Assembly (NCBI GenBank): GCA_963777955.1
Contig: CAVZSQ010000019.1
Coordinates: 445,079-509,078 of the forward strand
Length of the DNA: 64,000 nucleotides
Direction: 5' to 3'
Source of the DNA: Calditrichia bacterium
Lineage (GTDB): Bacteria; Calditrichota; Calditrichia; JAJRVZ01
The position numbers and the translations under genes are program-made. Numbering within the stretch: the first letter of the stretch is position 1; every line of letters starts with the position of its first letter. This document shows, piece by piece, positions 9,846-26,987 of this stretch. The notes below the pieces were generated by a model. The model saw only the letters and a program-made list of their open reading frames with translations. It was not told the origin of the DNA and did not search any database.

Positions 9846-11102
9846 TTACTCTTTACCCTTTGTCCTCATGAATCTGATTATTTCTGCCATTTCTTTTATC
9901 TCTGCTAAATCTCTTACCATCTCGCTCCAGCCATACCACAGCGAGTAATCGGGATTGGCATGAAAAGCACCCTGGAACAGACGCATGCGGTGCTGCAAAT
10001 GCATTACAAACAAGCGCTGTTCAATGGGCGTGGCGGCATCATGAAAGGTTAACAGATCGGGAAAATCAAATTTATATGCCGCCGGCTTTTTTAAGATTCC
10101 TTCCTGATATAAACCTGCCACGATTTTAATTGCCTCAGCCAGCAGGCGGTCGCCATTTTCTATAGTTTTATCTGCTTTGTTTAATTCGGCTTTGGCAAAA
10201 TTTTCAGAATGGCATTGAGTGCAGGTCTGGATCATTTTCGTTCGTTCACGGTCGAAAGTTTCGGTACTCAAACGGGCCACATCGGCATTTCTGACCAGAT
10301 CCAGACGGCCGGTCGGATTCCCCTGTGGATCCAACACCCCCAGGGCCTGTAAAATCGTTACGCGGTCTTTCCACCATGATTCGCTCTCGCCCGGATAGGG
10401 AGCAAGTCCGTTAGTACGCACGGCTAAAAAACCCCAGGCGGTACGCACTTCATGATTCCCTTCCTGCATGTGACAGGTCTGGCAGGTCGGGGCAGCGGAA
10501 TTTTCGGGAATCCGGCCCGACACTTTCAAGGTGTGGCGCACTCCGTGTTTGGATGATGAATACATTTCCCATTGCGGATGATCGAAGCCCATATGGCAGG
10601 TCTGGCACGCCTCCGGCTGGCGGGCTTCATCGGCCGAAAACAGGTGCCGGGTGTGGCAGGCGTCGCAGGAAGCACGGCCGAAGCCGGCTCCTTCTTTATT
10701 CAATTCTTTTAAATCGGCTCCGGATTTGATACCGATTTTATGACAACCCCCGCAACCTTTGATCCCTTCGATCAGTTCCATAGGCTGCCAGTGAATGGTG
10801 GGCATGGCATACATGGCCGCCCAGGCCAGGGCATGCTTTCCTTTTTTAAATTGAGTCACCTGCTGCTCATGGCAATCGGCACAGGTTTCGGGTAGGGGGA
10901 TCATCACCTTGCTGACATCGGCAGCAGACATGTGCAGTTCACCATGACAGACGGAACAATCGACATTATTTTTGCTGTGCTTGCTCAACTGCCAGTCTGT
11001 GACGATGCCCGGTGTTTCGGTCTGGTGACAGGTAATACAATCAACCGCCTGTGCAATGGAAAAAGTTGCAGCAATCAAGAAAACAACAAATACTTGTTTC
11101 AT
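9846..11102 (-). CDS. Octaheme cytochrome c, hydroxylamine oxidoreductase (HAO) family
   Basis: Signal peptide; 8 CxxCH motifs (CITCH, CSVCH, CADCH, CGGCH, CDACH, CQTCH x2, CTQCH); CHTRHLFS, CHMGFDHPQWEMY, FHANPDY. Confidence 0.9.
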   Translation of the reverse strand: MKQVFVVFLIAATFSIAQAVDCITCHQTETPGIVTDWQLSKHSKNNVDCSVCHGELHMSAADVSKVMIPLPETCADCHEQQVTQFKKGKHALAWAAMYAMPTIHWQPMELIEGIKGCGGCHKIGIKSGADLKELNKEGAGFGRASCDACHTRHLFSADEARQPEACQTCHMGFDHPQWEMYSSSKHGVRHTLKVSGRIPENSAAPTCQTCHMQEGNHEVRTAWGFLAVRTNGLAPYPGESESWWKDRVTILQALGVLDPQGNPTGRLDLVRNADVARLSTETFDRERTKMIQTCTQCHSENFAKAELNKADKTIENGDRLLAEAIKIVAGLYQEGILKKPAAYKFDFPDLLTFHDAATPIEQRLFVMHLQHRMRLFQGAFHANPDYSLWYGWSEMVRDLAEIKEMAEIIRFMRTKGKE

Positions 11103-11299
11103 ATATACCCCTCTGCTGAATAATTACACTGGAAATCTTAGCCAAGATTGTAATTACCGGTATTTTTTCTGAGTCCGGTAGTAAAGTTATCATTGTAATA
11201 AATACCACGTTTAAATGAATTATAAATCATGAAGTGAATAATAAATATGCTGAATTTACAGTAAAAAAAGTTGATTATAAATATTTATAACAGGATAGA

Positions 11300-12028
11300 C
11301 TAATGCGATAAAACAACACAGATGTTTTCAGACAGGCAATGATTATATTCCGCCAAGGTTAAATTCCCGAACCAGCTGACTTTATTAAAACCATTGTCAG
11401 CAGCTAATTGGGATAGTTCAGCGGATTGTAACGGATATAATTCATTGGAGATCTTGCGTTTCCCCAGGGGTGTTTCAATGCTGATAGTGAACAGTATGGT
11501 AGATTTCAGATATTGATATGAGCGGGTATATTTGTGGTCACCATGCTCTTTGACCGAGAATGTCTGCGGTTTTTCTTTTAGTATTTTGTCGTAATTCATT
11601 AACTGCAGAAAGACATACCCGTCCGGTTCCAGAGCCCGCCTGAAATTCTGCAAGACATTACGGCGCTGAGCAGCAGTCAGCAGATGCGCAAAACTATTGC
11701 CCAAACAGAAAATTGCGTCAAATTTATTTTTGATCTGCCGGTTGAAATTTAAAAAATCAGCATTAATAAATTCCGGAGTAACCTGCCACTGCCGTGAATT
11801 TTCCCGTGCTTTTGCCAACATCGCTGCCGAGTTATCAATGGCAGTTACTTTTTTCCCGAGCAGGGATAATACAATACTGTGGAAACCCGTGCCACAACCG
11901 GCATCCAGTATATTTTTCGCCGGAAACCGTTTGAATATTTCACGGAAAATTTCAGTCTCTTTTTCCAGACGATCACTGAATCCGATCATCTGATCGTATG
12001 CGCCAGCCAGTTGAGTGTAAAAATCCAT
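11300..12028 (-). CDS. Class I SAM methyltransferase (glycine/sarcosine N-MTase-like fold)
   Basis: ILDAGCGTGFH; FDAIFCLGNSFAHL. Confidence 0.85.
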   Translation of the reverse strand: MDFYTQLAGAYDQMIGFSDRLEKETEIFREIFKRFPAKNILDAGCGTGFHSIVLSLLGKKVTAIDNSAAMLAKARENSRQWQVTPEFINADFLNFNRQIKNKFDAIFCLGNSFAHLLTAAQRRNVLQNFRRALEPDGYVFLQLMNYDKILKEKPQTFSVKEHGDHKYTRSYQYLKSTILFTISIETPLGKRKISNELYPLQSAELSQLAADNGFNKVSWFGNLTLAEYNHCLSENICVVLSH

Positions 12029-13135
12029 TTAATCCTCAGATGTATAGTCCGCCACTTCGCCGCGATTGTGTCCATAAACCGGTTTATCGATCTCCTGAAT
12101 CCTTTTGCGGTATTCGGCAGCACTTATGCTGTTTTGCCAGTGTCCGCTGAAGCGGGCGAGCAGGAAACCGGCAATAAAAATACCAAGTACCAGAAATCCA
12201 AACAGCCAGGAGGGGATATATGTTTTCGATTTTCTACTGAACTTAAATTGAAGTGTATCCGCCACCGGACAGGCATCGATGCATAGAGCACAGGCAGTAC
12301 ATTCATCCGAAATAATACGCAGTGGTTTATGAACCGTGATTAAATTAGGACAAACTCTGGTGCACCTGCGGCAATCCGTGCAGGTAACCGGATTGCGGGT
12401 GACTTTGACCGGACTGAACAGACTGAGAAATCCCAGCAGCGCTCCGTACGGACAGAGATAACGGCACCAGAAATTTTTAATAACTATTGAAAGCAGAATC
12501 AGCACGGCCAGAGTCCAGAAGGCAAATGAAGATAATTCGGTAAAAAACAGTAACATCTTAACATCGGCTACTTTATTGTAAGGACTGTAGATGAATTTCT
12601 GCACCCCTGCGGCATCCATCTGCCACAGGATAGCGTACAGGAAAAACAACAGTAATATATATTTCAGGGACCTTAAGGGAATATCGAGCCATCCGGGCAG
12701 GCGCATATTTTTGCTGAAAAACTTTTTCCCCACTTGCCACAGGCTTTCGGACAGCAAGCCGACCGGACAGATCCAACTGCAAAAACTTTTTTTCAAAAAG
12801 AAACCAAGCAACAGGATGATAATCAACAGCACCAGCCCGGCAGGATGAATGTCATTGAATACTCCGCTTAAAAGCCAGTGCTTCAGGCTGATCAATGAAC
12901 TGATCGGCAGGAATCCTTCTACCCCCGGCGGCCGGCCAAGATACAGACCCTGCTCCCCCTGCTGATAATAACGGACAAACAAGTAAAACTCAAACCCAAC
13001 CCATAATACTACCAGCAGGAATCCTATTTGTATGTATAGCCGTACTTTTTGACCATCATGCTTCAAACCGGTCCAGTACTCTTTAATTCTCTGTAAATAT
13101 TTCCTTGTAAAGATTTTTTTCATGTTCATTATCAA
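12029..13135 (-). CDS. Membrane polyferredoxin (NapH/MauN/YccM-like 4Fe-4S binding protein)
   Basis: VEGFLPI, FCSWICPVG, WCRYLCPYG, two CxxCxxCxxxCP motifs, multiple TM segments. Confidence 0.9.
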   Translation of the reverse strand: MIMNMKKIFTRKYLQRIKEYWTGLKHDGQKVRLYIQIGFLLVVLWVGFEFYLFVRYYQQGEQGLYLGRPPGVEGFLPISSLISLKHWLLSGVFNDIHPAGLVLLIIILLLGFFLKKSFCSWICPVGLLSESLWQVGKKFFSKNMRLPGWLDIPLRSLKYILLLFFLYAILWQMDAAGVQKFIYSPYNKVADVKMLLFFTELSSFAFWTLAVLILLSIVIKNFWCRYLCPYGALLGFLSLFSPVKVTRNPVTCTDCRRCTRVCPNLITVHKPLRIISDECTACALCIDACPVADTLQFKFSRKSKTYIPSWLFGFLVLGIFIAGFLLARFSGHWQNSISAAEYRKRIQEIDKPVYGHNRGEVADYTSED

Positions 13136-13180: not shown

Positions 13181-13300
13181 ATAGTCTGGTTCATTTTATG
13201 AGGCAAGAAAATTTTATTAATTGTTATCTTTTCTAGTACTAATAGTCTGCATTTTGTGTAAAATTAATGTTTTATGATGATACTTTTTGAAAGGAAAAAT

Positions 13301-14714
13301 ATGACTCCAAAAGCATTTTTTGAATTTGCCAAAAGGGCTAAAGCCGAAATGGTTGATCTGAAATTTACCGACCTGCTGGGTACCTGGCAGCATTGTACCT
13401 TTCCTGTCGAGACCTGGGATGAAAAAACATTTGTCGAAGGGGTTGGATTTGACGGTTCTTCCATCCGCGGCTGGCAGGGTATTCATATGTCCGATATGCT
13501 GGCGGTTCCGGATTCCAACAGCACTAAACTGGATCCGATTTTCCGGGAACCCACTGTCAGCGTCATCGCCAACATTGTCGATCCCATTACACACGAAGAC
13601 TATTCCCGCGACCCCCGTCACGTGGCCCGCAAGGGTGTGGAATATCTGCGACAGACCGGGATTGCCGATCTCTGTCAGATTGGTCCGGAACCGGAATTTT
13701 TTATTTTCGATGAAATTCGCTATGAACAAAATCAACACATGGGTTTATACCAGATCGACTCTGTCGAAGGCGCCTGGAATACCAACCGTATCGAAGAACC
13801 CAATCTCGGCTATAAACCGAGTTTTAAAGGGGGTTATTTTCCAGTCAGTCCTACTGACACTTATCAGGACCTGCGCGGCGATATGGTCAATACCCTGCGC
13901 AAGCTGGGTATTGTCTGCGAAGCGCATCATCATGAAGTAGGCACCGGGGGACAAAGCGAGATCGATATACGTTTCACCGACCTGTTGACCATGGCCGACC
14001 AGATGATGTGGTACAAATACATTATCAAGAATATTGCCCGCAATGCCGGTAAAACAGTTACCTTCATGCCCAAACCGATTTTTGGGGATAATGGCAGCGG
14101 CATGCACACCCATTTTTCATTGTGGAAAAAGAACAAACCTCTGTTTGCCGGAAATGATTATGCCGGTTTGAGCGAGATGGCCTTGCATGCCATCGGCGGA
14201 GTAATAAAACATGCAGCCGCCATATCTAGCTATCGCCGCGCCTACTACCAATTCCTACCGCCGCCTGGTACCCGGTTTCGAAGCCCCGGTAAACCTGGCT
14301 TATTCCCAGCGCAACCGCTCGGCCTCGGTCCGTATACCAATGTATTCCCAAAATCCCAGGGCCAAGCGCTTTGAATTTCGTTGCCCCGATCCAAGTTGTA
14401 ATGGTTATCTGACTTTTACTGCTATTCTCATGGCGGTACTGGACGGTATCCAGAACAAAATGCATCCGGGTGATCCGCTGGATCGCGATATTTACGAAAT
14501 GTCACCGGCAGAGTTGGCCCACGTGCCAAAAGTACCGGGGACACTGGGAGAATCTATGCAGGCGCTGCAGAATGATCATGAGTTTCTGACCAGAGGGGGA
14601 GTCTTTACGGATGACCTGATCGAAACCTGGATAGATTACAAACAGAAAAATGAACTGCATGAACTGTCCATGCGTCCCCATCCGTATGAATTTTTTCTTT
14701 ATTATGACAGTTAG
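13301..14714 (+). CDS. glnA: Type I glutamine synthetase (frameshift near 14225)
   Basis: [66 protein letters not shown]. Confidence 0.97.
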
Positions 14715-14736: not shown

Positions 14737-14777
14737 AGCCACCTTCGAGGTCTGGAGAATCTCGAAGGTGGTTTTTT
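14737..14777 (+). terminator. Hairpin plus U-tract after glnA
   Basis: AGCCACCTTCGAG...CTCGAAGGTGGTTTTTT. Confidence 0.7.
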
Positions 14778-14881: not shown

Positions 14882-17800
14882 ATGCCTAATAAATCTTTTA
14901 CTCTTCTAGTTTGTATTTTCTTTATACTGCTGTCCGCTATGGTAATCGCCGAACAGCCTGCCGACAGTACGTTCTCGGTCATCTTCCGGCACCGGCAGTC
15001 ACGGGAATATGTACCTGATATAAGAGACGCTGCCGGGGTTGCCTTCAGGGATATCAATGATGATGAATTACCCGATCTCTACATAGTCTGTATCCGGGGA
15101 GATAATCATCTGCTGCTGAACAGCGGTGCTTATCGTCCCTTCAAAGATGCAACTGCACTGTCCGGCCTGGATGGCAATCCGCGTCCCAGGGGATTTTATA
15201 ATATGGAAACCGGGACCAATACTTACGATCAGAAATTCGGTACCAACATTTGCGATCTCGACAATGACGGGGATGGGGACATCCTGATTGCCGGTTGGGG
15301 TATTGCTACCGCCCTTTACCGGAATAACGGTAATCTGCAATTCAGAAATATAACCGATCAACTGGAATTATTTCCCCCCATCAATGCCAACCAGTTTTAT
15401 GCGGCTGATCTAGACAACGACGGTTTGCTGGATCTGTTACTGACCGATGAAAATCACGGCGTCAGGCTGTTACGCAATTTAGGCGATAACTTTTTCCAGG
15501 ATATTACTTCCGGCAGTGGATTGGATACGGTCAGCACGGCCCGTTCGGCAGCATTTTGTGATTTTGATAACGACGGAGACGCAGATCTGTATCTGACCCG
15601 CTACAATAAACCGGATCAAATGTACCGTAATTCAGGTGATGGCCGCTTTATACCCCTGCCGGCCTTCCTGGCCGTGCTGCGACAGAATCTACCCTCTACC
15701 GGAATTAAGCTGGGGAGATATCGATAACGATACTGATCTGGATTTCCTGGTTACAGCCTCTGATGGCCACAACCGGTTATATCTGAATCAGACTGCACCC
15801 GGCGATTCCAATTGGATTTTCAGCGAATTCAACCCGCTCAGTGACGGGAAGTACCTTTTCCCCTCCTACGGGAGTATAATGGCTGATTTTAATAACGATG
15901 GCCTGCTTGATATCTTTATTGCCAATAGAGGTCCGAATGAACTCCTGTGGCAGCGCTCTCCGCTTCTATTTGAGCAAAGTTTTGAATATTCCCCGGCTAT
16001 CGTTAGATCTGCGACTCCGGCCGGCAGCCGCAGTGCAGTGTGCGCTGATTTTGATCTGGACGGTGATCTGGATGTGTTTGTTACCAATCTGGATACTTTC
16101 TGCGTGCTTTATCAGAACATGACCAACACTTCATCTTTTATAAAATTCAAATTAACCGGTACCATTTCCAACCGCGATGCAGTGGGAGCCAGGATTGAAT
16201 TACACCCGCCGGCGAATGATAAAGAAATAATTGCCATCCGTGAGATCAATGGCGGCGAAGGGTATCTTTCCGCCAACGAACCGCTGGTACATTTTGGACT
16301 GGATACACTGACCCGGGTTGATGCGACCATTCGTTTTCCCGGAGGCCGGATTATCAAGGCACAGGGACTGGCCGCCGGTCAGGTCCACCAGATCTATGAG
16401 TACGCCCTGCTGGAGCGTTCCTTTATTCAATTTTACCAGCATTTGTTGAGCCTGATGCGTCAGACTGTTTTCTGGTATCAGGTCATTCTGGCCCTGTTAT
16501 TCTTTATGTTGATTTTTGTCTTTGTACGGCTGGGCTTGAAGCGCTACCGTTGGAGTCCCGGAGCAGCGAGTGGTTACCTGGTAGGATTTTTTATTTCAGC
16601 ACTGATTGCGATTACGGCCTTAAAGAAACTTGGCTTGTTGACCATCTATATCACCATCGATATACTGACGATCCTGTTTATTATTATTTCCATCATTAAC
16701 TCGGAGCGTCTGTACCGTCTGCGCAGCATCCGCGAAAGATATCGTTCGATTCTGATCGACCTGAGCAACCAGATTGTCAATATTCATGATAATGACGAGT
16801 TATTCCGAACCGTAATCGAAAACATTCTGCAGATAACCGAATTTGATACCATCGTTATATTGGCACTTGATCGCAGTGAAAAAAATGTGGAGAACGTATT
16901 ATCACGGGGAGTCGAGGTCGGACCTCAGGATCCCGGTGCGCAGCAATGCTGGCCGGAATTTCTCCCGGCCATGCGGATTCATAAACATATACAGAAGAAT
17001 TTTCACCGCAATTATATCCCTCTGTTCAGTTTACTCGGTGCGGAAGTCATCTTAAGTATTGAAAGAGGCACCAGGATATACGGTTTACTATCTCTAGGCG
17101 CCCGGCACCCGATCAGTCCGCTTAAACGGGAAGATCTCGAATTATTCAAATCCTTGTGCAATCAGATGGCCGTGGCCCTGGAAAATAATGAATACATTCA
17201 CCGTTCCACCGAAATGATCAAGCGCTTAACTGCCGCTGAAGTACAGGAAAAATACCTGAAGGAACTGGAAGCAGCCTATACAGTTCTGGATTCAAAAAAC
17301 CGCGACCTGCAGCAGCTGTACGATGAGTTGAAGAATACCCAGGCACAGTTGATTCAGGCTGAAAAAATGGCTTCCCTTGGTCAACTGGTAGCCGGCATAT
17401 CGCATGAAATAAACAATCCGGTCGGATTTATTTATTCCAACGTCAAGCAACTGCAACAGTATACCCAGAGGATTGAAAACTTTATTGCCCGGCAATCCGA
17501 GGCCGATCAAATCAAACAGATCCTGCCCGATATAAAGAACCTGATCGAAGATACGATCACCGGCAGTAAAATGATCAAAGAACTGGTCAGCGATCTGCGT
17601 AGTTTTTCACACCTCGATCAGGCCAAGTGGCAAATGTTTAATATACATGATGGTCTGGAGAACAGCATTAAGATCATGCTGACCCAGTTCAAGCATCACC
17701 TCACCATCCAGCGCAGTTTCCACGCCGCAGGTGCACTGGAATGCAATCCCGGTCAACTTAATCAGGTTTTTCTGAATCTATTGACTAATGCGGCACAGGC

Positions 17801-18083
17801 TATTAAGGAAGAAGGTACCATTTGGATAGAAACTGAGGACCTGCGGCGGCAGAACTCCCTGGTTATCCGGATCAGGGATAATGGCATCGGTATGCCTGCT
17901 GAAACGGTCAATAAAATATTTGATCCATTCTTTACTACCAAGGACGTTGGTGAAGGAACCGGCTTGGGTTTGAGTATCAGTTATTCGATCATTAAAAATC
18001 ACGGCGGCAGCATCGAAGTGACCAGCACTCCCGGCAAGGGCAGCACGTTTACGATCACCCTGCCGTATAAAAAAACTTCGTAG
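14882..18083 (+). CDS. Sensor histidine kinase with N-terminal FG-GAP/ASPIC-UnbV (CRTAC1-like) domain, 3 TM, GAF-like, HisKA, HATPase (frameshift near 15700)
   Basis: Signal peptide; 7 DxDNDGxxD-type repeats; SNRDAVGARI...GEGYLSANEPLVHFGL..IRFPGG (ASPIC/UnbV); EKMASLGQLVAGISHEINNP; NQVFLNLLTNA; DNGIGM; FFTTK..GEGTGLGL. Confidence 0.88.
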
Positions 18084-18192: not shown

Positions 18193-19282
18193 ATGACCAA
18201 TTCGAAAAGCAGAGACGCCGAGCCGAAATTATTCAAAACATTTTTTGATGATATAAACCGGGTAAATATCCGGCGTTCTTTTAAAACCGACTGGAATGAG
18301 TTAAAGGAATTTTTTATAACCGAGCAGCGCAAAAAAAAATTACTGCACATGTCCCGGTTCCGCCGCTGGTTGTATACCGTCGGCTGGATGTTAAAGGGCC
18401 TTTTTCTGCGTCTGACCCCTTTTCGCCGACTGACTGCTGGTAATTGCCACTTTTTGCTTACTGATCTCCCAGAACACACAAAATAATCAGAATAGCCTGA
18501 TATTTATAGGGCTGCTGATATTACTCTTTATCTTAATGCTGGAACTCAAAGACAAGTTACTGGCTCATGAAGAATTAGAGGCCGGCCGGGCGGTGCAACA
18601 GGCTTTATTACCGGAATCGAAACCTGCCATTCCGGGCTGGCAAATCTGGCTATCCACCTCACCGGCTTACGAAATTGGCGGAGATCTGGTGGATTATATT
18701 CCTTTTAATCGGCATCATGCCCTGGTGCTGGCGGATGTATCGGGTAAAGGACTGGCCGCAGCCCTGTTCATGGCCAAACTGCAGGCTACCATCCGCGCCC
18801 TGGTTGCCGATGTTTCCGATCTGACCACGCTGGGAAGAAAAATCAATTCCATTTTTTATCGTGATACCCGCCGTCAGAGTTTTGCTTCCCTGCTGCTGAT
18901 CGGTCTTGGATCGATCCCGGGAAAAATAAATTTGCTGAATGCCGGACATCTGCCGCCGCTGCTGATTCAAAACGATAAGATTGTAGAACTACCTAAAGGT
19001 TCAACAGCAATTGGACTGGCTGCCGGAACAGTTTTTGCCGAACAGGAGATTACACTCCAGCCCAACGATATTTTCCTTGGCTATACCGATGGACTGGTCG
19101 AATCCCGGAATTCCGCAGGAGAATTTTTCGGAGAGGAACGATTAAGAAATTTACTGTACGATTTTGCCCATCTTTCGCCGGAATTGCTGGCCCAGCGAAT
19201 ATTCGATACAATCCATGACTTCGTCAATGAAACAGCCAAGCATGACGATCTTTCCCTGGTTATAATTAAACGTATCGCTTGA
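18193..19282 (+). CDS. PP2C/SpoIIE (RsbU-like) Ser/Thr phosphatase with N-terminal membrane anchor (frameshift near 18430)
   Basis: AVQQALLP, IGGDLVD, LADVSGKG, NAGHLPP, YTDGLVE, HDDLS. Confidence 0.9.
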
Positions 19283-19347: not shown

Positions 19348-20781
19348 ATGAATAAAGATACTATTCTTATAGTTGATGATCAGCCGGAAATCCTGAATGC
19401 CCTGGAACGTCTGTTAAAAGAAGAATATCAGATACTGACGGCAGCCAGTGGTTCAGCTGCCCTGGAAATCCTGGCTAAACAACAGGTAACCGTCATTCTG
19501 GCCGATCAGCGCATGCCCGGGATGACCGGCGTCGAATTTTTTTCCCGGGCTCTTGAACAGCAGCCGGATACCATAAGAATCCTGATCACGGCTTATGCCG
19601 ACATCACCGCTTCCATTGATGCTGTCAACCGCGGACAGATATTTTATTATATTTCCAAGCCATGGGAACCGGAAGAGTTGTTACTGATTGTACGCCGGGC
19701 CGTGGAAAAATTCCGCTTGCTGCGCGAGAATAAAGAACTGAATCAAAAATTACATGAAGCAAATGTACAACTGCAGCAGGAAAATGTTTTGCTCAAACAG
19801 AGTATCACCCGGGAATATGATTTCAGCAGCATTATCGGTCACGCTCCGCGGATGCTGCAGGTGTTCAAACTGGTTTCCCGGATTATCGATACTTCCACCA
19901 CCGTATTATTGCTCGGTGAAACCGGAACCGGCAAGGAGTTGATCGCCCGGGCCATACACTTTAATGGCCCCCGTAAGGGTGAACTGTTTGTGGCCCAGAA
20001 TTGCGGTGCCCTGCCGGATACTTTGCTGGAGAGTGAACTTTTCGGTCATACCCGCGGATCCTTTACCGGGGCAGTTGCCGATCGTAAAGGTATTTTCGAA
20101 CTGGCCGACGGCGGAACTGTTTTTCTGGATGAGATCGCCGATACTTCCCCGGCACTGCAGGTACGCCTGCTCAGAGTACTTCAGGAAGGGGAAATCAAAC
20201 CGGTTGGCGGTACCAAAACGAATAAAGTGGACGTACGGGTAATCGCGGCGACTAACAAAAATCTGGAACAAATGGTCAGTGAACACAATTTCCGTGAGGA
20301 TCTTTATTACCGCCTGAATGTATTTCCGATCATTCTACCGCCTCTGCGCGAACGCCGTGATGATATCAGCGACCTGGTAAATCATTTTGTTATTAAATAT
20401 GCCCAAAAGATCAATAAGAACATAACTGCCATAACCCCGGAAGCTATGCAATTGCTGATACAGGCTAATTTCCCCGGCAATATCCGTGAACTGGAAAACG
20501 AAATTGAACGGGCTGTCACCTTAACCGACGATAACTCTGCCATAACACCCGAAGTTCTGTCAACCCGCTTCCACCAGTCGCAAATATTTTCGCTACCCGA
20601 GAAAGACATTTTACAGCGCCCCATGAAAGATCAGGTGGAAGAACTGGAAAAACACATGATTCTGCATGCCCTGCGGGAAACACATGGCAACATACTGCAT
20701 GCGGCTGAAAAACTTCATCTTAGCCGCGCCGGCCTGCATAAAAAAATTAACCGTTATAAACTCCCCGTCAAAGTAAAGTAA
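19348..20781 (+). CDS. Sigma54-dependent response regulator (NtrC family)
   Basis: REC domain (DD, DQRMP, KPW); GETGTGKE; ESELFGH..GSFTGA; FREDLYYRL; PGNIRELEN; Fis HTH. Confidence 0.95.
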   Translation: MNKDTILIVDDQPEILNALERLLKEEYQILTAASGSAALEILAKQQVTVILADQRMPGMTGVEFFSRALEQQPDTIRILITAYADITASIDAVNRGQIFYYISKPWEPEELLLIVRRAVEKFRLLRENKELNQKLHEANVQLQQENVLLKQSITREYDFSSIIGHAPRMLQVFKLVSRIIDTSTTVLLLGETGTGKELIARAIHFNGPRKGELFVAQNCGALPDTLLESELFGHTRGSFTGAVADRKGIFELADGGTVFLDEIADTSPALQVRLLRVLQEGEIKPVGGTKTNKVDVRVIAATNKNLEQMVSEHNFREDLYYRLNVFPIILPPLRERRDDISDLVNHFVIKYAQKINKNITAITPEAMQLLIQANFPGNIRELENEIERAVTLTDDNSAITPEVLSTRFHQSQIFSLPEKDILQRPMKDQVEELEKHMILHALRETHGNILHAAEKLHLSRAGLHKKINRYKLPVKVK

Positions 20782-20816
20782 ACATAGTTTACACACAACT
20801 GTAAACAGTGTTTACA
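20778..20816. promoter_or_regulatory. Tandem palindromic enhancer (UAS) sites
   Basis: GTAAACATAGTTTAC (20778-20792) and TGTAAACAGTGTTTACA (20800-20816), about 100 bp upstream of the sigma54 site. Confidence 0.7.
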
Positions 20817-20900: not shown

Positions 20901-20916
20901 TGGCACGCTAATTGTA
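20901..20916 (+). promoter_or_regulatory. Sigma54 -24/-12 promoter
   Basis: TGGCACGCTAATTGTA versus consensus TGGCACG-N4-TTGCW (one mismatch, correct spacing). Confidence 0.8.
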
Positions 20917-20964: not shown

Positions 20965-22234
20965 ATGAAAAAACAAAACTGGTTCCTAACCTTAGCCGTA
21001 GTGATGCTGGCTAGTTTTGCCCTGGTGGGGTGTTACACCAGATTCGGCTTCGTTCATCAGGAAACCGGTTATGAAGATGAAGAGACTTTATGAAGCGGAA
21101 GTTGCTGACGAAGCTGAAATCGGTGAAACCGACGATGTCCCTTGTTGTGATGACAGGTATGACCATTATTATGTCCGCGATCATTATTTCTATGATCCCT
21201 GGTGCTGGGAGCCCGGATTTTACGTTTCGGTAGGTTTCGGCTGGGATTATTTCGATCCGTACTGGTACTATCCTTACTATTATTATCCATATCGTCCTTA
21301 CTACCACTATCCCTATGTGGCTTATCCTTATCCGTTTGTTTATCCATGGGGTTATCCGGTCTGGTACTATGAGCCCGATTATAACTATGCTTACAACTAT
21401 GAACGCCGGCCCTTTGTAAAACGGGGACAGTATCTGCCGGCCAGACGGGGAATGGATCTTAACGAGCGAATGGAATTGGCCAACCGGCCCGGACGCCGCG
21501 TGGGAGTTACCGATCGTAATCGCGAACTGGTCTCCGGCAACATCAGAACTGCTGATATCAGCCGCGATAATAACCGCGATAGAATTTCCGCCCGCAGTGC
21601 AGCAGTCAAAACTCGTGAGAAAGACAATACTGCTACTCGCGCCAAATCTACGACGACCGCAGTCGGGGAACGACGGGAAGTCACCAATTCAGGAAATCGC
21701 GAAACTACCCGGCGCAATGGCAAAGAAACTACCACTACGACCAGGGAAAATACGGGAAAGAGATCTGCGACGACGACAACAAAACGTACTGATTCATCAT
21801 CGACAAGAGTGAATAAAGTAAATAATAATACTCATGATTCAAATAGCGGCAACTCTTCAGTGAACGGACGGTCCAGTGTGACGCGACCGGCTTCAGGATC
21901 TAACAAAAATTCTTCCGGTTCCGCTAACTCTTCAAGATCATCAAACTCCTCAAACGGAAATTCCAAGGTCACCCGTTCCAATTCCGGTTCAAGCGATCGT
22001 TCAGCTGGTTCCCGCAGCAGCAATTCCTCAACGGTTACCCGTTCCAGTTCCGGTTCGGGTAAAAGTTCCTCGAGTTCAGGCAGAAGTTCTTCCGGTTCCA
22101 GCGGCCGTTCCTATTCAGCCCCGTCCAGCAGCCACGGTAGTTCTTCCTCGGGCGGCAGCCAAAGTTCCGGCAGATCAAGTTCAGGTAGTTCAGGTGGATC
22201 AAGCAGATCCGGTTCAGGCGGACACAGACGCTAA
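20965..22234 (+). CDS. Lipoprotein with Tyr/Pro-rich segment and long Arg/Thr/Ser/Gly disordered tail (frameshift near 21087)
   Basis: AAGGAG RBS; ATG 20965 gives MKKQNWFLTLAVVMLASFALVG-C (lipobox), joining the 405-aa frame at YEAEVADE. Confidence 0.8.
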
Positions 22235-22266: not shown

Positions 22267-23643
22267 ATGAAAAAGTATATAACTCTGCTAATCATGGCCT
22301 TCGGCCTGCTGCAATGGTGCCTGGCTCAATCCCCGCAAGAGGCAGTGAATCTGCTGGATAACGAAGACGGAGTGGGCGCCAGAGCTCTGGGCATGGGTAA
22401 TGCTTTCAATGCTGTGGCTGATGACTATACAGCCACGTACTGGAATCCGGCCGGATTAACCCAACTGGACTATAATGAAATCTCAGCCAACCTTTCCAAT
22501 TTACGGTTTGAGAATGAAGCCTTATTCCATAATACCACTACTCTGGATAATCGCAGCTGGGCAAAATTTCATTCCTTTGGCCTGGCTTATAAATTCCCGA
22601 CCACCCGCGGCAGTTTTGTACTGGGTTTTGGTTTTAATCGTTTCAAAAATTATAATGACTTCCTGTCCTTTAACGGTTATAACCGCAACAGCAACGGCCT
22701 GGAATTTGAACTGGAGGATGATTTCGGGGAGTACCAGTACTATCCGTTTGATCAGGATGTGCAGCAGAATGAAACGGTCAGCCAGGACGGCAGTTTAAAT
22801 GCCTGGACCCTGGCAGGCGGTATGCAGTTATCACCCACTTTTTCTCTGGGCCTGGCTATCAATGTATATACCGGTAAAAGCGAATACCTGCTGGATTTCA
22901 ACCAGGAAGATGTGGATAATATCTATAATCAGTACCCGGGTGATTTCAATTATTATGAACTGCATCAGCAGATCCTGACCGATATGTATGGTTGGGGTCT
23001 CAAAGTGGGCAGCTTGATAAAAGTGACCCCGCAACTGAATCTGGGCTTTACCGTCGAATTTCCGACCACCTTGCATGTAACAGAAACTTACGCCGCCAAT
23101 GATCTGCTGGAATTCGACGACGGATATATCAGCGAACTGGATCTTGGCAGCGGCGAATGGGAATACCTGGTCACTTATCCCTATAAATTCAGTGCCGGTG
23201 CCGCTGTGAACCTGAATCTCTTTAAACTGGCCGGTTCTATTGATTATCGCGACTGGTCGCAGGTTCGTTTTGACATACCGGACGGATTCGCACTGGATGA
23301 ATACTACAACGATTTATTGTATGAGAATCAAAATTTTCCAGAACAATTCAAATCGGTGCTTTCTTATTCAGCCGGAGGCGAAGTACGTATTCCCGGTTCG
23401 CCGTTACTGCTCAGAGGCGGATACCGCTTTGTGCCCTCCCCTCTGCGTGAAACGAATCCTGATCTGGACCGTAATTATTACAGTGCCGGTTTGGGGTATG
23501 ATATTGATGGATCTACTTCTCTGGACGTAGGCATGACCTGGGGCAAAATCAAACGGCAAAGCGTCGATTCCTATACTCCCGGCGGAACCGATGAATCGAT
23601 TAGCACCACCCGGGTCCTGGCGGGAGTTACATTTAGGTTGTAG
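22267..23643 (+). CDS. OmpP1/FadL-family outer membrane beta-barrel
   Basis: Signal peptide; GARALGMGNAFNAVADD..ATYWNPAGL; amphipathic C-terminal strand. Confidence 0.88.
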   Translation: MKKYITLLIMAFGLLQWCLAQSPQEAVNLLDNEDGVGARALGMGNAFNAVADDYTATYWNPAGLTQLDYNEISANLSNLRFENEALFHNTTTLDNRSWAKFHSFGLAYKFPTTRGSFVLGFGFNRFKNYNDFLSFNGYNRNSNGLEFELEDDFGEYQYYPFDQDVQQNETVSQDGSLNAWTLAGGMQLSPTFSLGLAINVYTGKSEYLLDFNQEDVDNIYNQYPGDFNYYELHQQILTDMYGWGLKVGSLIKVTPQLNLGFTVEFPTTLHVTETYAANDLLEFDDGYISELDLGSGEWEYLVTYPYKFSAGAAVNLNLFKLAGSIDYRDWSQVRFDIPDGFALDEYYNDLLYENQNFPEQFKSVLSYSAGGEVRIPGSPLLLRGGYRFVPSPLRETNPDLDRNYYSAGLGYDIDGSTSLDVGMTWGKIKRQSVDSYTPGGTDESISTTRVLAGVTFRL

Positions 23644-24548: not shown

Positions 24549-26987
24549 ATGATAAAAATTTCAAAACGGATCGGTTTATACCTGGCTATAAACCTGGTCA
24601 TACTTATTGTTTGCTTCCTGCATTTACCGGCGGTTTTAAACCGTCCTATGGTTCCCTTCCATATAATTAAAACCGGTCAGGGTCTGATTATCGATAAAAT
24701 AAATGATCCCCTGGCCAGCGGTGAATTGCAGATTGGCGACCGGGTAATTGCCTGGGATAAGCAGTCTGTCAATATTCCTGAGGTTACAGAATTCCTGGGC
24801 GAAATGTCAAAAATCGGAAATAACGTTACTATTACTTTTCAACGGCAGGTCATAACCGGCACGACTGCCATAACCCTGATCCCCTTTCATCATACTCTTC
24901 GTTATATATTCATTATTTTCTTCGTCGGCCTGATGACCTGGGGCGTGGCAATTTTTGTTTTACTCAAAGGTCCGCCTGCACTCAGCACCACGGTTTTGCA
25001 TTGGATCATGGCCTCTTTTGGATTTGTGATCATGTTGACCACGGGGGTCATCGACCAGGACAGTATATTCTCATATTTGACCCGCTCTTTATTCCTGATT
25101 TTTTATATGACCACTGCCAGTGGTTTGTTCTTTTTTTCCGCCATATTTCCCAAACAAAAGTCGGTAATCAGTAAGGCAATTTCCATCTTCATTCCGGCCG
25201 CTGTTTTTACTGCCTTACTGATTTTTTATATGCTGCGGGCTATATATTATTACTCGGTAATTGAGTACGCCCGCTTTCAGTTCTTGTTCAATATTTTCCA
25301 TATATCCCTCTATATTTTTATCGGCGGAAGTTTAATTAATTTTTTTCATGCCTATTACAGCAGCAAACAGGTTGACGATCACCTTCGCTTGCGTCTGATT
25401 TTCTGGGGAATACTGCTTGGTGCCGCACCATTTTTATTACTCAGCATTCTGCCTCAAATCCTGGGCCGCAGTGAATTGATCCGCGAGGAATTCACTCTCA
25501 TTTTTTTCCTGTTCATTCCGTATGCCTTTGCCCTGGCTATTCTCAAGTATCGTCTGCTGGACATCGACCTGATCATCAATCGTATTCTGGTTTATGGTTT
25601 ACTGACTTTTTTTCTCGGTGCCATCTATATCCTTACGGTCCTGATGGTAATTTCGGTAATCGGTGGTGAAATCGTATTCGACGATTATCTGTTCTTATTG
25701 CTGACCACTCTGTTCGTGGCAATTATCTTTAATCCTCTGCGGCGGGGTTTACAGAAAATAATCAACGATCTGTTTTTTTCAGCCAGGGAAAATTACCGTC
25801 AGGCGGTTCATGCTATCAATACCGATCTGGAAAACTGCTGGAGCAGCGATGCGCTGTTCCGGCAATTGATTAACAGTTTGAGCCGTTTTGTACCCAATCA
25901 GCATCTGGCTTTATTCCGGGTCGTGGAAGACACACTGCAGTTGCAGTATTCCTCCCGCAGCGATACTCCACGGCAGTTCTCCTTTCCGGGTATAAACCTG
26001 CAGCAGTTAATTTCAACCGGGCAGATTCATGCTTTACCGAAATCAGTTTATCTGCACCCGGAACAGGTGGATTTTGCGCAGAGCGATTTTTTACAGCAGA
26101 TTAATTTCCCGGTATGTATACCGCTGCTGACCAAAACATCTTATTTTAAAGGTATACTGTGTGCTACGCCGTACCATAACCGCTTCATTGCCGCCGAGTT
26201 GGATTTATTGCGCACCGCCTGCCTGCAGGCCTCGGAAATACTGGACCGGCTGATCTTACAGGAACGCATGATCATCGAGCGGGAAGAAAAAAATCGACTG
26301 AAGGAAATCAGTTCTTACATCATCTCGCTGGTAGCTCATGAATTGCAATCACCGCTTACTTCCATCCGCTTATTTTCCGAAATGCTGTCGCAGCAGAATA
26401 AAAACTTATCCGCAGAACACCGGGAATACCTGGAGACTATAAATAATGAAACCATGCGCCTGTCACGACTGATTAAAAACGTTCTGGACTTTTCCCGGAT
26501 CGAACGGGGCCTTAAGGAATATCACTTCGAAATATTAACACTTAACCGGTTGGTTGAGCATACGTTGAATCTATTTAAACAGCAACTGCAGCAAGCTGGT
26601 TTTCAACTGGAGCTGGCTCTGACCGAGCAGGATACTACTTTGCGGGCCGATGAAGATGCTTTGATTTCAGCCCTCGGAAACCTGATCGTCAATTCGATCA
26701 AATATTCACCGGCAGAGAGATACCTGGCCATCTCAACCCGTTGCCAGAACCAGCACATTCAGCTCTGTATCAAGGATAAAGGTATCGGTATTCCTGAGAC
26801 AGAACAGAATCTGGTATTCGATGATTTTTACCGTGCAAGCAGCAGCCAGGTACAATCATTAAGCGGGCTCGGGCTGGGTTTAGCCCTGGTTAAACGCATT
26901 ATTGTCGCCCACCATGGTGAAATCAGACTGGAGAGCAGGCCCGGGCAGGGCACGACATTTACAATCACTTTACCAGCGGGAGTCTGA
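24549..26987 (+). CDS. Multi-TM sensor histidine kinase (PDZ-like, about 9 TM, GAF-like, HisKA, HATPase)
   Basis: LQIGDRVIA (PDZ-like); AILKYRLLDID; AHELQSPLTSI; NLIVNSIKYS; DKGIGI; GLGLGL. Confidence 0.9.
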   Translation: MIKISKRIGLYLAINLVILIVCFLHLPAVLNRPMVPFHIIKTGQGLIIDKINDPLASGELQIGDRVIAWDKQSVNIPEVTEFLGEMSKIGNNVTITFQRQVITGTTAITLIPFHHTLRYIFIIFFVGLMTWGVAIFVLLKGPPALSTTVLHWIMASFGFVIMLTTGVIDQDSIFSYLTRSLFLIFYMTTASGLFFFSAIFPKQKSVISKAISIFIPAAVFTALLIFYMLRAIYYYSVIEYARFQFLFNIFHISLYIFIGGSLINFFHAYYSSKQVDDHLRLRLIFWGILLGAAPFLLLSILPQILGRSELIREEFTLIFFLFIPYAFALAILKYRLLDIDLIINRILVYGLLTFFLGAIYILTVLMVISVIGGEIVFDDYLFLLLTTLFVAIIFNPLRRGLQKIINDLFFSARENYRQAVHAINTDLENCWSSDALFRQLINSLSRFVPNQHLALFRVVEDTLQLQYSSRSDTPRQFSFPGINLQQLISTGQIHALPKSVYLHPEQVDFAQSDFLQQINFPVCIPLLTKTSYFKGILCATPYHNRFIAAELDLLRTACLQASEILDRLILQERMIIEREEKNRLKEISSYIISLVAHELQSPLTSIRLFSEMLSQQNKNLSAEHREYLETINNETMRLSRLIKNVLDFSRIERGLKEYHFEILTLNRLVEHTLNLFKQQLQQAGFQLELALTEQDTTLRADEDALISALGNLIVNSIKYSPAERYLAISTRCQNQHIQLCIKDKGIGIPETEQNLVFDDFYRASSSQVQSLSGLGLGLALVKRIIVAHHGEIRLESRPGQGTTFTITLPAGV

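Follow-up and report, generated by a model that had tools for sequence, protein, structure and literature searches.

A CRTAC1-type propeller-ASPIC sensor on a histidine kinase of Calditrichota, with a predicted sigma-54 regulon

Introduction

The window analyzed here is a 64,000-nucleotide stretch of the genome of a Calditrichia bacterium (assembly GCA_963777955.1, contig CAVZSQ010000019.1, positions 445,079 to 509,078), and coordinates are counted from its first letter. Its subject is a sensor histidine kinase encoded on the plus strand between 14882 and 18083, whose extracytoplasmic part carries the FG-GAP propeller and UnbV/ASPIC domain of CRTAC1, and which is followed by genes for a regulator, a lipoprotein, and an outer-membrane barrel. 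Judging from the sequence comparisons below, the kinase probably acts through the neighboring NtrC-type regulator, a palindrome, and a sigma-54 promoter on the lipoprotein and the FadL-type barrel. What is new is a sensor variant of an NtrB/NtrC-kind kinase, together with its predicted regulon; it is real, conserved, and apparently unstudied.

Reading Frame and Domain Architecture of the Kinase

In the window, the kinase gene appears as two overlapping open reading frames (ORFs) of the plus strand, ORF A (14882–15727, 281 aa) and ORF B (15636–18083, 815 aa). The initial annotation had joined them through an indel near 15700 into a protein of about 1,070 aa, and this was borne out: one extra base lies at 15705–15708, and reading through it gives 275 + 791 = 1066 aa. 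The same-genus genome G001 does not have this base; it is also missing at 15705 from the contigs of three of the four runs (X1, X2, and X4, with no cover in X3), and an intact near-twin of 1065 aa, P0061, belongs to the same 90% cluster and is 94–95% identical to each half. Moreover, 27 of the 168 orthologues shared with G001 are split in the assembly of the window, with +1 accounting for 29 of the 35 shifts; a cruder comparison with distant neighbors, less sensitive than the same-genus test, found one split locus out of 62. Because the runs and G001 lack the base, P0061 is intact, and so many other orthologues are split alike, the interruption is the product of an insertion-prone assembly and not the mark of a pseudogene. 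Further surplus bases occur in the adjacent glnA (14226, absent in X1), in a phosphatase gene (18434, absent in X1 and X4), and in the lipoprotein gene (near 21085), so that four +1 errors fall inside 8 kb.

The frameshift is what a pseudogene in this strain, or a chimeric assembly that created the fusion, would have in its favor; with the near-twin intact, those four errors, and 16% of the genes split genome-wide, such an explanation retains only a very slight probability. As for the chimera, which would imply that propeller and kinase are separate genes elsewhere, the fusion was found in an intact single frame in 67 of the 86 genomes of the phylum. In the window itself, propeller blades 5–7, ASPIC, the transmembrane helices, and the kinase all lie in the single frame of ORF B, and the fusion is therefore independent of the indel.

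Regarding the domains, Pfam and hydropathy agree with the succession read at first from the letters: signal peptide, seven repeats, ASPIC, three transmembrane helices, GAF, H-box, and HATPase. The Sec signal peptide (14882–14950) is hydrophobic in 68 of the 71 aligned orthologues in which this segment is present. It is followed by a seven-bladed FG-GAP/VCBS β-propeller (14951–16120, approximate ends), seen both in an AlphaFold2 model of P0061 and with Pfam FG-GAP_3; blades 1–4 and four Dx[DN]xD loops are in ORF A (2e-27), blades 5–7 and the other three loops in ORF B (1e-16). The UnbV/ASPIC β-sandwich (PF07593) occupies 16179–16388, and its match, which the initial annotation had singled out for checking, held with 45.3 bits against a cut-off of 23.4 (8.4e-12). 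Three transmembrane helices (16461–16706; out-in, in-out, out-in) are hydrophobic in all 80 orthologues, and the 16 residues after the third contain on average 6.3 Lys or Arg in the same set; together these features place the sensor outside and the GAF and kinase domains inside, with a predicted topology of periplasmic sensor and cytoplasmic GAF and kinase.

The GAF domain (16791–17180; 3.5e-5, 24.8 bits, cut-off 22.4) is poorly conserved. HisKA (3e-7) and HATPase_c (5e-30), of the NtrB/ZraS/AtoS type, extend from 17376 to 18083 and contain the H-box HEINNP, with the His codon at 17403–17405. The H-box His and the N, G1, F, and G2 boxes of the HisKA class are all present, and H840, E841, N843, N844, P845, D998, G1000, and G1002, the F1012–K1019 box, and G1024/G1026/G1028 are invariant in 80 sequences. 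Among 30 divergent orthologues, mean identity is 53% in the propeller and 56–58% in the kinase core, and drops to 27–29% in the transmembrane helices and GAF (29% for the latter).

The Predicted CRTAC1 Fold and Comparison with Known Sensors

The animal protein CRTAC1 has been linked to cartilage and neural biology; its structure (9ETN) reportedly contains bound Ca2+ and K+, and we know of no established role for its bacterial relatives. The initial annotation had proposed that the CRTAC1-type module serves as an extracytoplasmic sensor, and both sequence and predicted fold agree: FG-GAP propeller and UnbV/ASPIC follow each other in the Pfam matches, the profile match to 9ETN has an E value of 6e-36, and murine CRTAC1 9ETN is also the best fold match of the ectodomain modeled on an 80-sequence alignment (pLDDT 83; Foldseek E 8e-27). 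The alignment covers 448 residues over 28–507, ASPIC included, with Z 42.4, a root-mean-square deviation of 2.6 Å, and 21% identity; the next-best match has Z 31.8. The order of propeller and ASPIC sandwich is thus shared with CRTAC1 and with the stand-alone bacterial FG-GAP + UnbV_ASPIC proteins, but ASPIC continues here into three transmembrane helices, GAF, and kinase, which sets the protein apart from the CRTAC1 family proper, secreted and devoid of transmembrane helices or kinase output. CRTAC1 itself is secreted and has an EGF-like domain plus a tail, according to the accessible part of PMC10477339.

The same annotation had called the receptor integrin-like and thought of a surface signal, among others. 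Its extracytoplasmic nature stands, whereas "integrin-like" is a loose term: integrins reach Z 25–26, no better than many generic propellers, their matches span only residues ~31–420, and where an integrin alpha subunit has thigh and calf legs, one transmembrane helix, and a beta-subunit partner, the model has ASPIC, three transmembrane helices, and GAF; an integrin-type adhesion receptor was consequently rejected. A direct role in surface sensing or adhesion is also unlikely, because signal peptide and helix topology would put the domain in the periplasm of a diderm cell.

Hybrid two-component system (HTCS) sensors of Bacteroidota have a double Reg_prop propeller, a Y_Y_Y domain, and a fused AraC regulator. 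The Bacteroides HTCS BT4663 (4A2L) shares with our protein a periplasmic β-propeller and β-sandwich mounted on a histidine kinase, but the likeness is that of propellers in general (Z 25.1, 7% identity): no Reg_prop, Y_Y_Y, or fused REC-AraC Pfam families were found in the kinase, which has instead one FG-GAP propeller, three transmembrane helices, GAF, and a separate sigma-54 activator. ZraS is a sigma-54 envelope-stress sensor, and its structure 9JFJ is the best PDB sequence match of the kinase core. Compared with ZraS/ZraR(/ZraP) and AtoS/AtoC, the kinase core is nearest ZraS in the PDB, the regulator is nearest AtoC/NtrC, and a small regulon likewise lies beside the pair; sensor, palindrome, and targets are instead unrelated, and the NCBIfam equivalog cut-offs for NtrB/NtrC, ZraS/ZraR, and AtoS/AtoC were all missed.

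The fusion had been presumed uncharacterized, and no paper on a propeller-ASPIC-kinase fusion was found by a search that left most subscription journals outside its reach. In their accessible parts, PMC3909097 mentions ASPIC, UnbV, and histidine kinase, each separately; PMC3192720 describes bacterial integrin-type propellers without transmembrane helices and does not contain the word "kinase"; the text of PMC8023676 lists no kinase fusion and has neither "kinase" nor "ASPIC", but its domain-environment figures could show one; and PMC5317091, the genome paper of the phylum, has no signaling section.

The Probable Partner Regulator and the Predicted Sigma-54 Promoter

The partner regulator, the sigma-54 promoter, and the target operon are the best clues to the function of the kinase. 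The likely cognate regulator (19348–20781, plus strand) is an NtrC-type sigma-54 activator of REC-AAA+-helix-turn-helix architecture according to Pfam and to its conserved residues: it carries DD10, D53, Walker A/B, and the GAFTGA-type loop GSFTGA, has a Fis helix-turn-helix, and is accompanied by rpoN in the genome and by a –24/–12 promoter. In 16 of 20 relatives such a regulator lies directly 3' of the kinase, and in the other four it is placed before the lipoprotein-barrel operon instead; the complete order kinase-regulator-lipoprotein-barrel occurs in 14 of the 20 regions.

Between the regulator and lipoprotein genes there are two palindromic upstream activator sites (20777–20793 and 20800–20816, no strand assigned), predicted to bind the regulator and with the consensus TGTAAAC-N3-GTTTACA, and a sigma-54-type promoter, TGGCAC-N5-TTGT (20901–20915, plus strand), recognized by motif and matrix score. 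With matrices built from relatives only, the pair of activator site and promoter of the window tops its genome with 43 bits, the next scoring 28.9; since the scan returned eight pairs in total against 0–10 in shuffled sequences, it is the top match alone that is meaningful. Promoter and palindrome occur together at 15 of 16 training loci, and at 1/16 at most after shuffling. In the held-out set, the motif pair was found at 13 of 16 first copies in genomes and at all seven metagenome loci (0/100 shuffles); two of the misses are contigs that end upstream (L172 and L182), leaving G005 as the real one. This genome keeps the operon without the motifs, and the orthologous kinase and regulator were not found in it. 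Second copies of the lipoprotein-barrel pair are not preceded by the motif pair (0/4), and at five of the 13 positive loci (G013, G017, G024, G078, and G035) the pair is present with no regulator within the ~6 kb examined.

The recognition helix of the regulator, S-R-x-G-L-[HQ]-K, is kept in 18 of 18 sequences. In a paralogous propeller-kinase system, the helix reads ESREG[LVI]SKK and the palindrome TGTGAA-N6-TTCACA, the latter being present in three of four members tested (L054, L057, and L058, not L052); it is also missing in L056, another ESREG member.

Exact copies of the TGTAAAC-N3-GTTTACA palindrome were also sought in ten whole genomes. Eight sites were found: the lipoprotein operon follows six of them, and the remaining two stand in front of exported Tyr-rich/Arg-Lys-rich proteins with sigma-54 sites of their own, so that a sigma-54 site and exported proteins of low complexity lie behind all eight. 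Reversed-pattern controls gave 0–9 sites per genome; therefore, the number of sites is not above chance, and it is their placement that constitutes the evidence. One of the two further targets has the RDWDRR motif of the lipoprotein. Secreted, non-lipidated Tyr-rich/Arg-Lys-rich proteins under this palindrome and a sigma-54 site are encoded at L218:161-1336 and L221:1654-2604. A likely second target, on sequence grounds, is a 438-aa exported protein (G000:C22:328740-330343, locus L073) behind a second perfect palindrome and a sigma-54-like site; no family match was found for it, and homologues exist in just two of 40 other genomes, that of G023 having both palindrome and sigma-54 motif.

Several points weigh against linking kinase, palindrome, and operon in this way. 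Because the palindrome consensus was seeded from the window, there is some circularity in the training set, though none in the held-out set. The G005 case comes from one metagenome-assembled genome of 88% completeness, and L078, a locus of the metagenome set, shares 97.5% identity with one of the training genomes; the genomes being kin, the counts overstate independence. As for the reading of signal and output, the face of the propeller that carries the conserved loops was inferred from blade register, and a FadL-family barrel suggests uptake of a hydrophobic nutrient equally well.

The Lipoprotein and the Outer-Membrane Barrel

The first gene behind the promoter (20965–22234, plus strand, split by the extra base mentioned above) encodes a lipoprotein with the lipobox LVG-CYT. 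The 15 orthologues measured begin with C-Y-T, followed by a stretch of ~160 residues, of which 32% are aromatic and 14% acidic, and by a tail of ~250 residues with 25% Arg/Lys and 31% Ser/Gly; the composition is at first acidic, then Tyr/Trp/Pro-rich, and finally Arg/Lys/Ser/Gly-rich. Neither the intact lipoprotein orthologues nor the other targets gave any match in Pfam or NCBIfam.

The second gene (22267–23643, plus strand) encodes an outer-membrane barrel of the FadL/OmpP1 family, with 14 strands, an N-terminal plug, and a PF03349 (Toluene_X) match above cut-off (1e-18; AlphaFold2 pLDDT 86.6), and it was found in 82 of 86 genomes. Its fold scores tie at Z 33–35 for FadL, TodX, CymD, and BamG, the top Foldseek match is 9HIV_F, and PDB sequence searches gave nothing or weak CymD/TodX matches. 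The barrel is neither the best BamG nor the best FadL match of its genome: another protein of G000 matches PF03349 far more strongly (3e-64). Its identification with BamG was rejected, with 51 bits against the NF053685 cut-off of 250 and a better candidate elsewhere in the genome, located at G000:C17:145838-146948 and split in the assembly. The association of a 14-stranded FadL-family barrel with a lipoprotein recalls BamG-BamH of the Bacteroidota β-barrel assembly machinery, but BamH is folded, as described in the accessible parts of PMC12611786 and PMC12578637, and the lipoprotein here is of low complexity.

Other Neighboring Genes

A membrane PP2C/SpoIIE phosphatase gene (18193–19282, plus strand; Pfam SpoIIE 1e-43) stands between kinase and regulator, interrupted at the surplus base already given; it is lineage-specific, being present also in L074 and in none of the 20 related regions.

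Just upstream of the kinase is glnA (13274–14714), and this position, with kinase and regulator both of the NtrB/NtrC class, could suggest a nitrogen regulator of the adjacent gene. Such a role is hardly credible: glnA is present in none of 40 related regions and none of 14 metagenome loci checked, a terminator-like hairpin with a T-run (about 14737–14777) separates it from the kinase, the palindrome pair was not found upstream of it, and regulator and kinase score below the ntrC (382.6 vs 558.6) and NR(II) (86.6 vs 240) cut-offs, respectively. A second glnA copy is on contig C13.

Further upstream, on the minus strand (9846–13135), the window encodes a multihaem cytochrome c of 418 aa, a methyltransferase-like ORF, and a 4Fe-4S membrane protein, the last two flanking the kinase in G004 too. 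Downstream, 24549–26987 holds another GAF histidine kinase with several transmembrane helices and, by eye, a PDZ-like N-terminus.

Distribution and Descent

The stretch from ASPIC through the transmembrane helices to GAF was matched in 80 of 86 genomes of the phylum (E ≤ 1e-12), nearly always in single copy. Among the best matches, the 67 single frames have 1009–1176 aa, and 12 are shorter (fragments or frameshifts); the best match of G005 is a paralogue only, and in G045 the gene is spread over two contigs. PF07593 and PF02518 occur together in 55 of 59 protein matches. None of the three genes for kinase, regulator, and barrel was found in G051 (94% complete), which may have lost the whole system.

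A FastTree phylogeny of 65 kinase sequences largely follows the GTDB families: f1, f3, f4, and f6 each lie on one side of a starred branch, with exceptions in f5 and f2, which need three and two changes, respectively. These sequence data are consistent with a mostly vertical descent. Outside the phylum, three members labeled Ca. Neomarinimicrobiota have the identical domain set; the complete four-gene unit occurs at L082, a metagenome locus with 69% identity to one of the three. The Atlas cluster has 179 members, with Calditrichota the commonest.

Calditrichota also have two families of paralogous FG-GAP(+ASPIC) sensor kinases, each beside its own sigma-54 activator; the proteins have ~1290–1375 aa (L052:4750-8709, L054, L056, L057, and L058) or ~1170–1230 aa (L060, L062, L068, L093, and L103). 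One family carries an extra YCF48/BNR propeller, and the one without the TGTGAA palindrome often precedes a CsgG/TPR/SH3 protein. At L061:3880-7452, a BNR and FG-GAP ectodomain is fused to a Ser/Thr protein kinase, an output of eukaryotic type.

The Signal and the Proposed Circuit

Regarding the signal, the Dx[DN]xDxxxD loops are present in 69–80 of 80 orthologues, depending on the blade, and the initial annotation had considered Ca2+ among the possible ligands. A kinase sensing Ca2+ (or K+) through its seven loops would agree with this conservation, and Ca2+ signaling by bacterial propellers is mooted in the accessible part of PMC3192720; the same source expects such sites to be always occupied outside cells, the loops are generic to VCBS propellers in the available text of PMC8023676, and the conservation specific to this family sits in other loops. 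It is more likely that Ca2+ has a structural role than that it is the signal, and we regard a Ca2+ or K+ sensor as improbable.

Beyond the calcium repeats, the conserved loops of the family are CFR, GWG, TDEH, CNW, YSTG, and NKD, and their presence points to one specific binding site. In a reading to which we give a little less than even chances, this site may recognize an envelope cue present in the periplasm, for example a peptide left unassembled or a fragment of the envelope. Three things favor such a cue: the system is retained nearly universally in single copy, its regulon is very small and consists of exported proteins of low complexity, and no catabolic genes accompany it.

The same circuit could instead work as an HTCS-like nutrient sensor, with the propeller binding a sugar, peptide, or lipid fragment that barrel and lipoprotein import. 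Lectins and enzymes that act on sugars are among the VCBS propellers (PMC8023676, accessible part), the HTCS sensor BT4663 combines a propeller with a Y_Y_Y domain (Z 25.1; PMC8534201, accessible part), and the barrel matches FadL, TodX, and CymD as well as BamG. However, the neighborhood has no conserved catabolic enzyme, SusC/D, or transporter, and none stands behind any exact palindrome, the lipoprotein is of low complexity with no binding fold, the system is not patchy but single copy in nearly all genomes, and the much stronger PF03349 protein of G000 is encoded elsewhere; on balance, nutrient sensing appears rather unlikely, although it is the rival to be taken most seriously.

The likely chain of events starts with a periplasmic ligand on the propeller; in the envelope reading, it would bind at the single site formed by the six loops, the calcium loops being structural. 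Binding would shift the sensor, then ASPIC and the transmembrane bundle, then GAF and the coiled coil, and hence the kinase; its His would be phosphorylated and the phosphate passed to Asp53 of the regulator, whose helix-turn-helix would bind TGTAAAC-N3-GTTTACA. Opening of the promoter by sigma-54 would follow, with expression of lipoprotein and barrel, the former possibly displayed by the latter or acting with it. What is produced would be a module for the envelope or a surface coat, built from low-complexity proteins of acidic-aromatic-basic composition.

A bolder and doubtful extension is a phylum-wide feedback, in which the CRTAC1-fold receptor would sense how far its own exported low-complexity products, rich in Tyr and Arg, are assembled, while the FadL/BamG-like barrel would display them as a surface coat or a condensate-like matrix.

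Conclusions

In conclusion, a CRTAC1-type module is wired in Calditrichota to a kinase for which a regulator, its binding site, a promoter, and an output of two genes are predicted, and this circuit offers a ready reporter assay for the ligand of a CRTAC1-type fold. In this widespread sediment phylum, the regulatory circuit is apparently core and single copy, lipoprotein and barrel form a pair that had no annotation, and the propeller module is reused with other kinases and with a Ser/Thr kinase output. Should the feedback prove true, the propeller-ASPIC module of CRTAC1 would for the first time have a defined ligand and a signaling role, and the envelope checkpoint would be of a kind not previously described.

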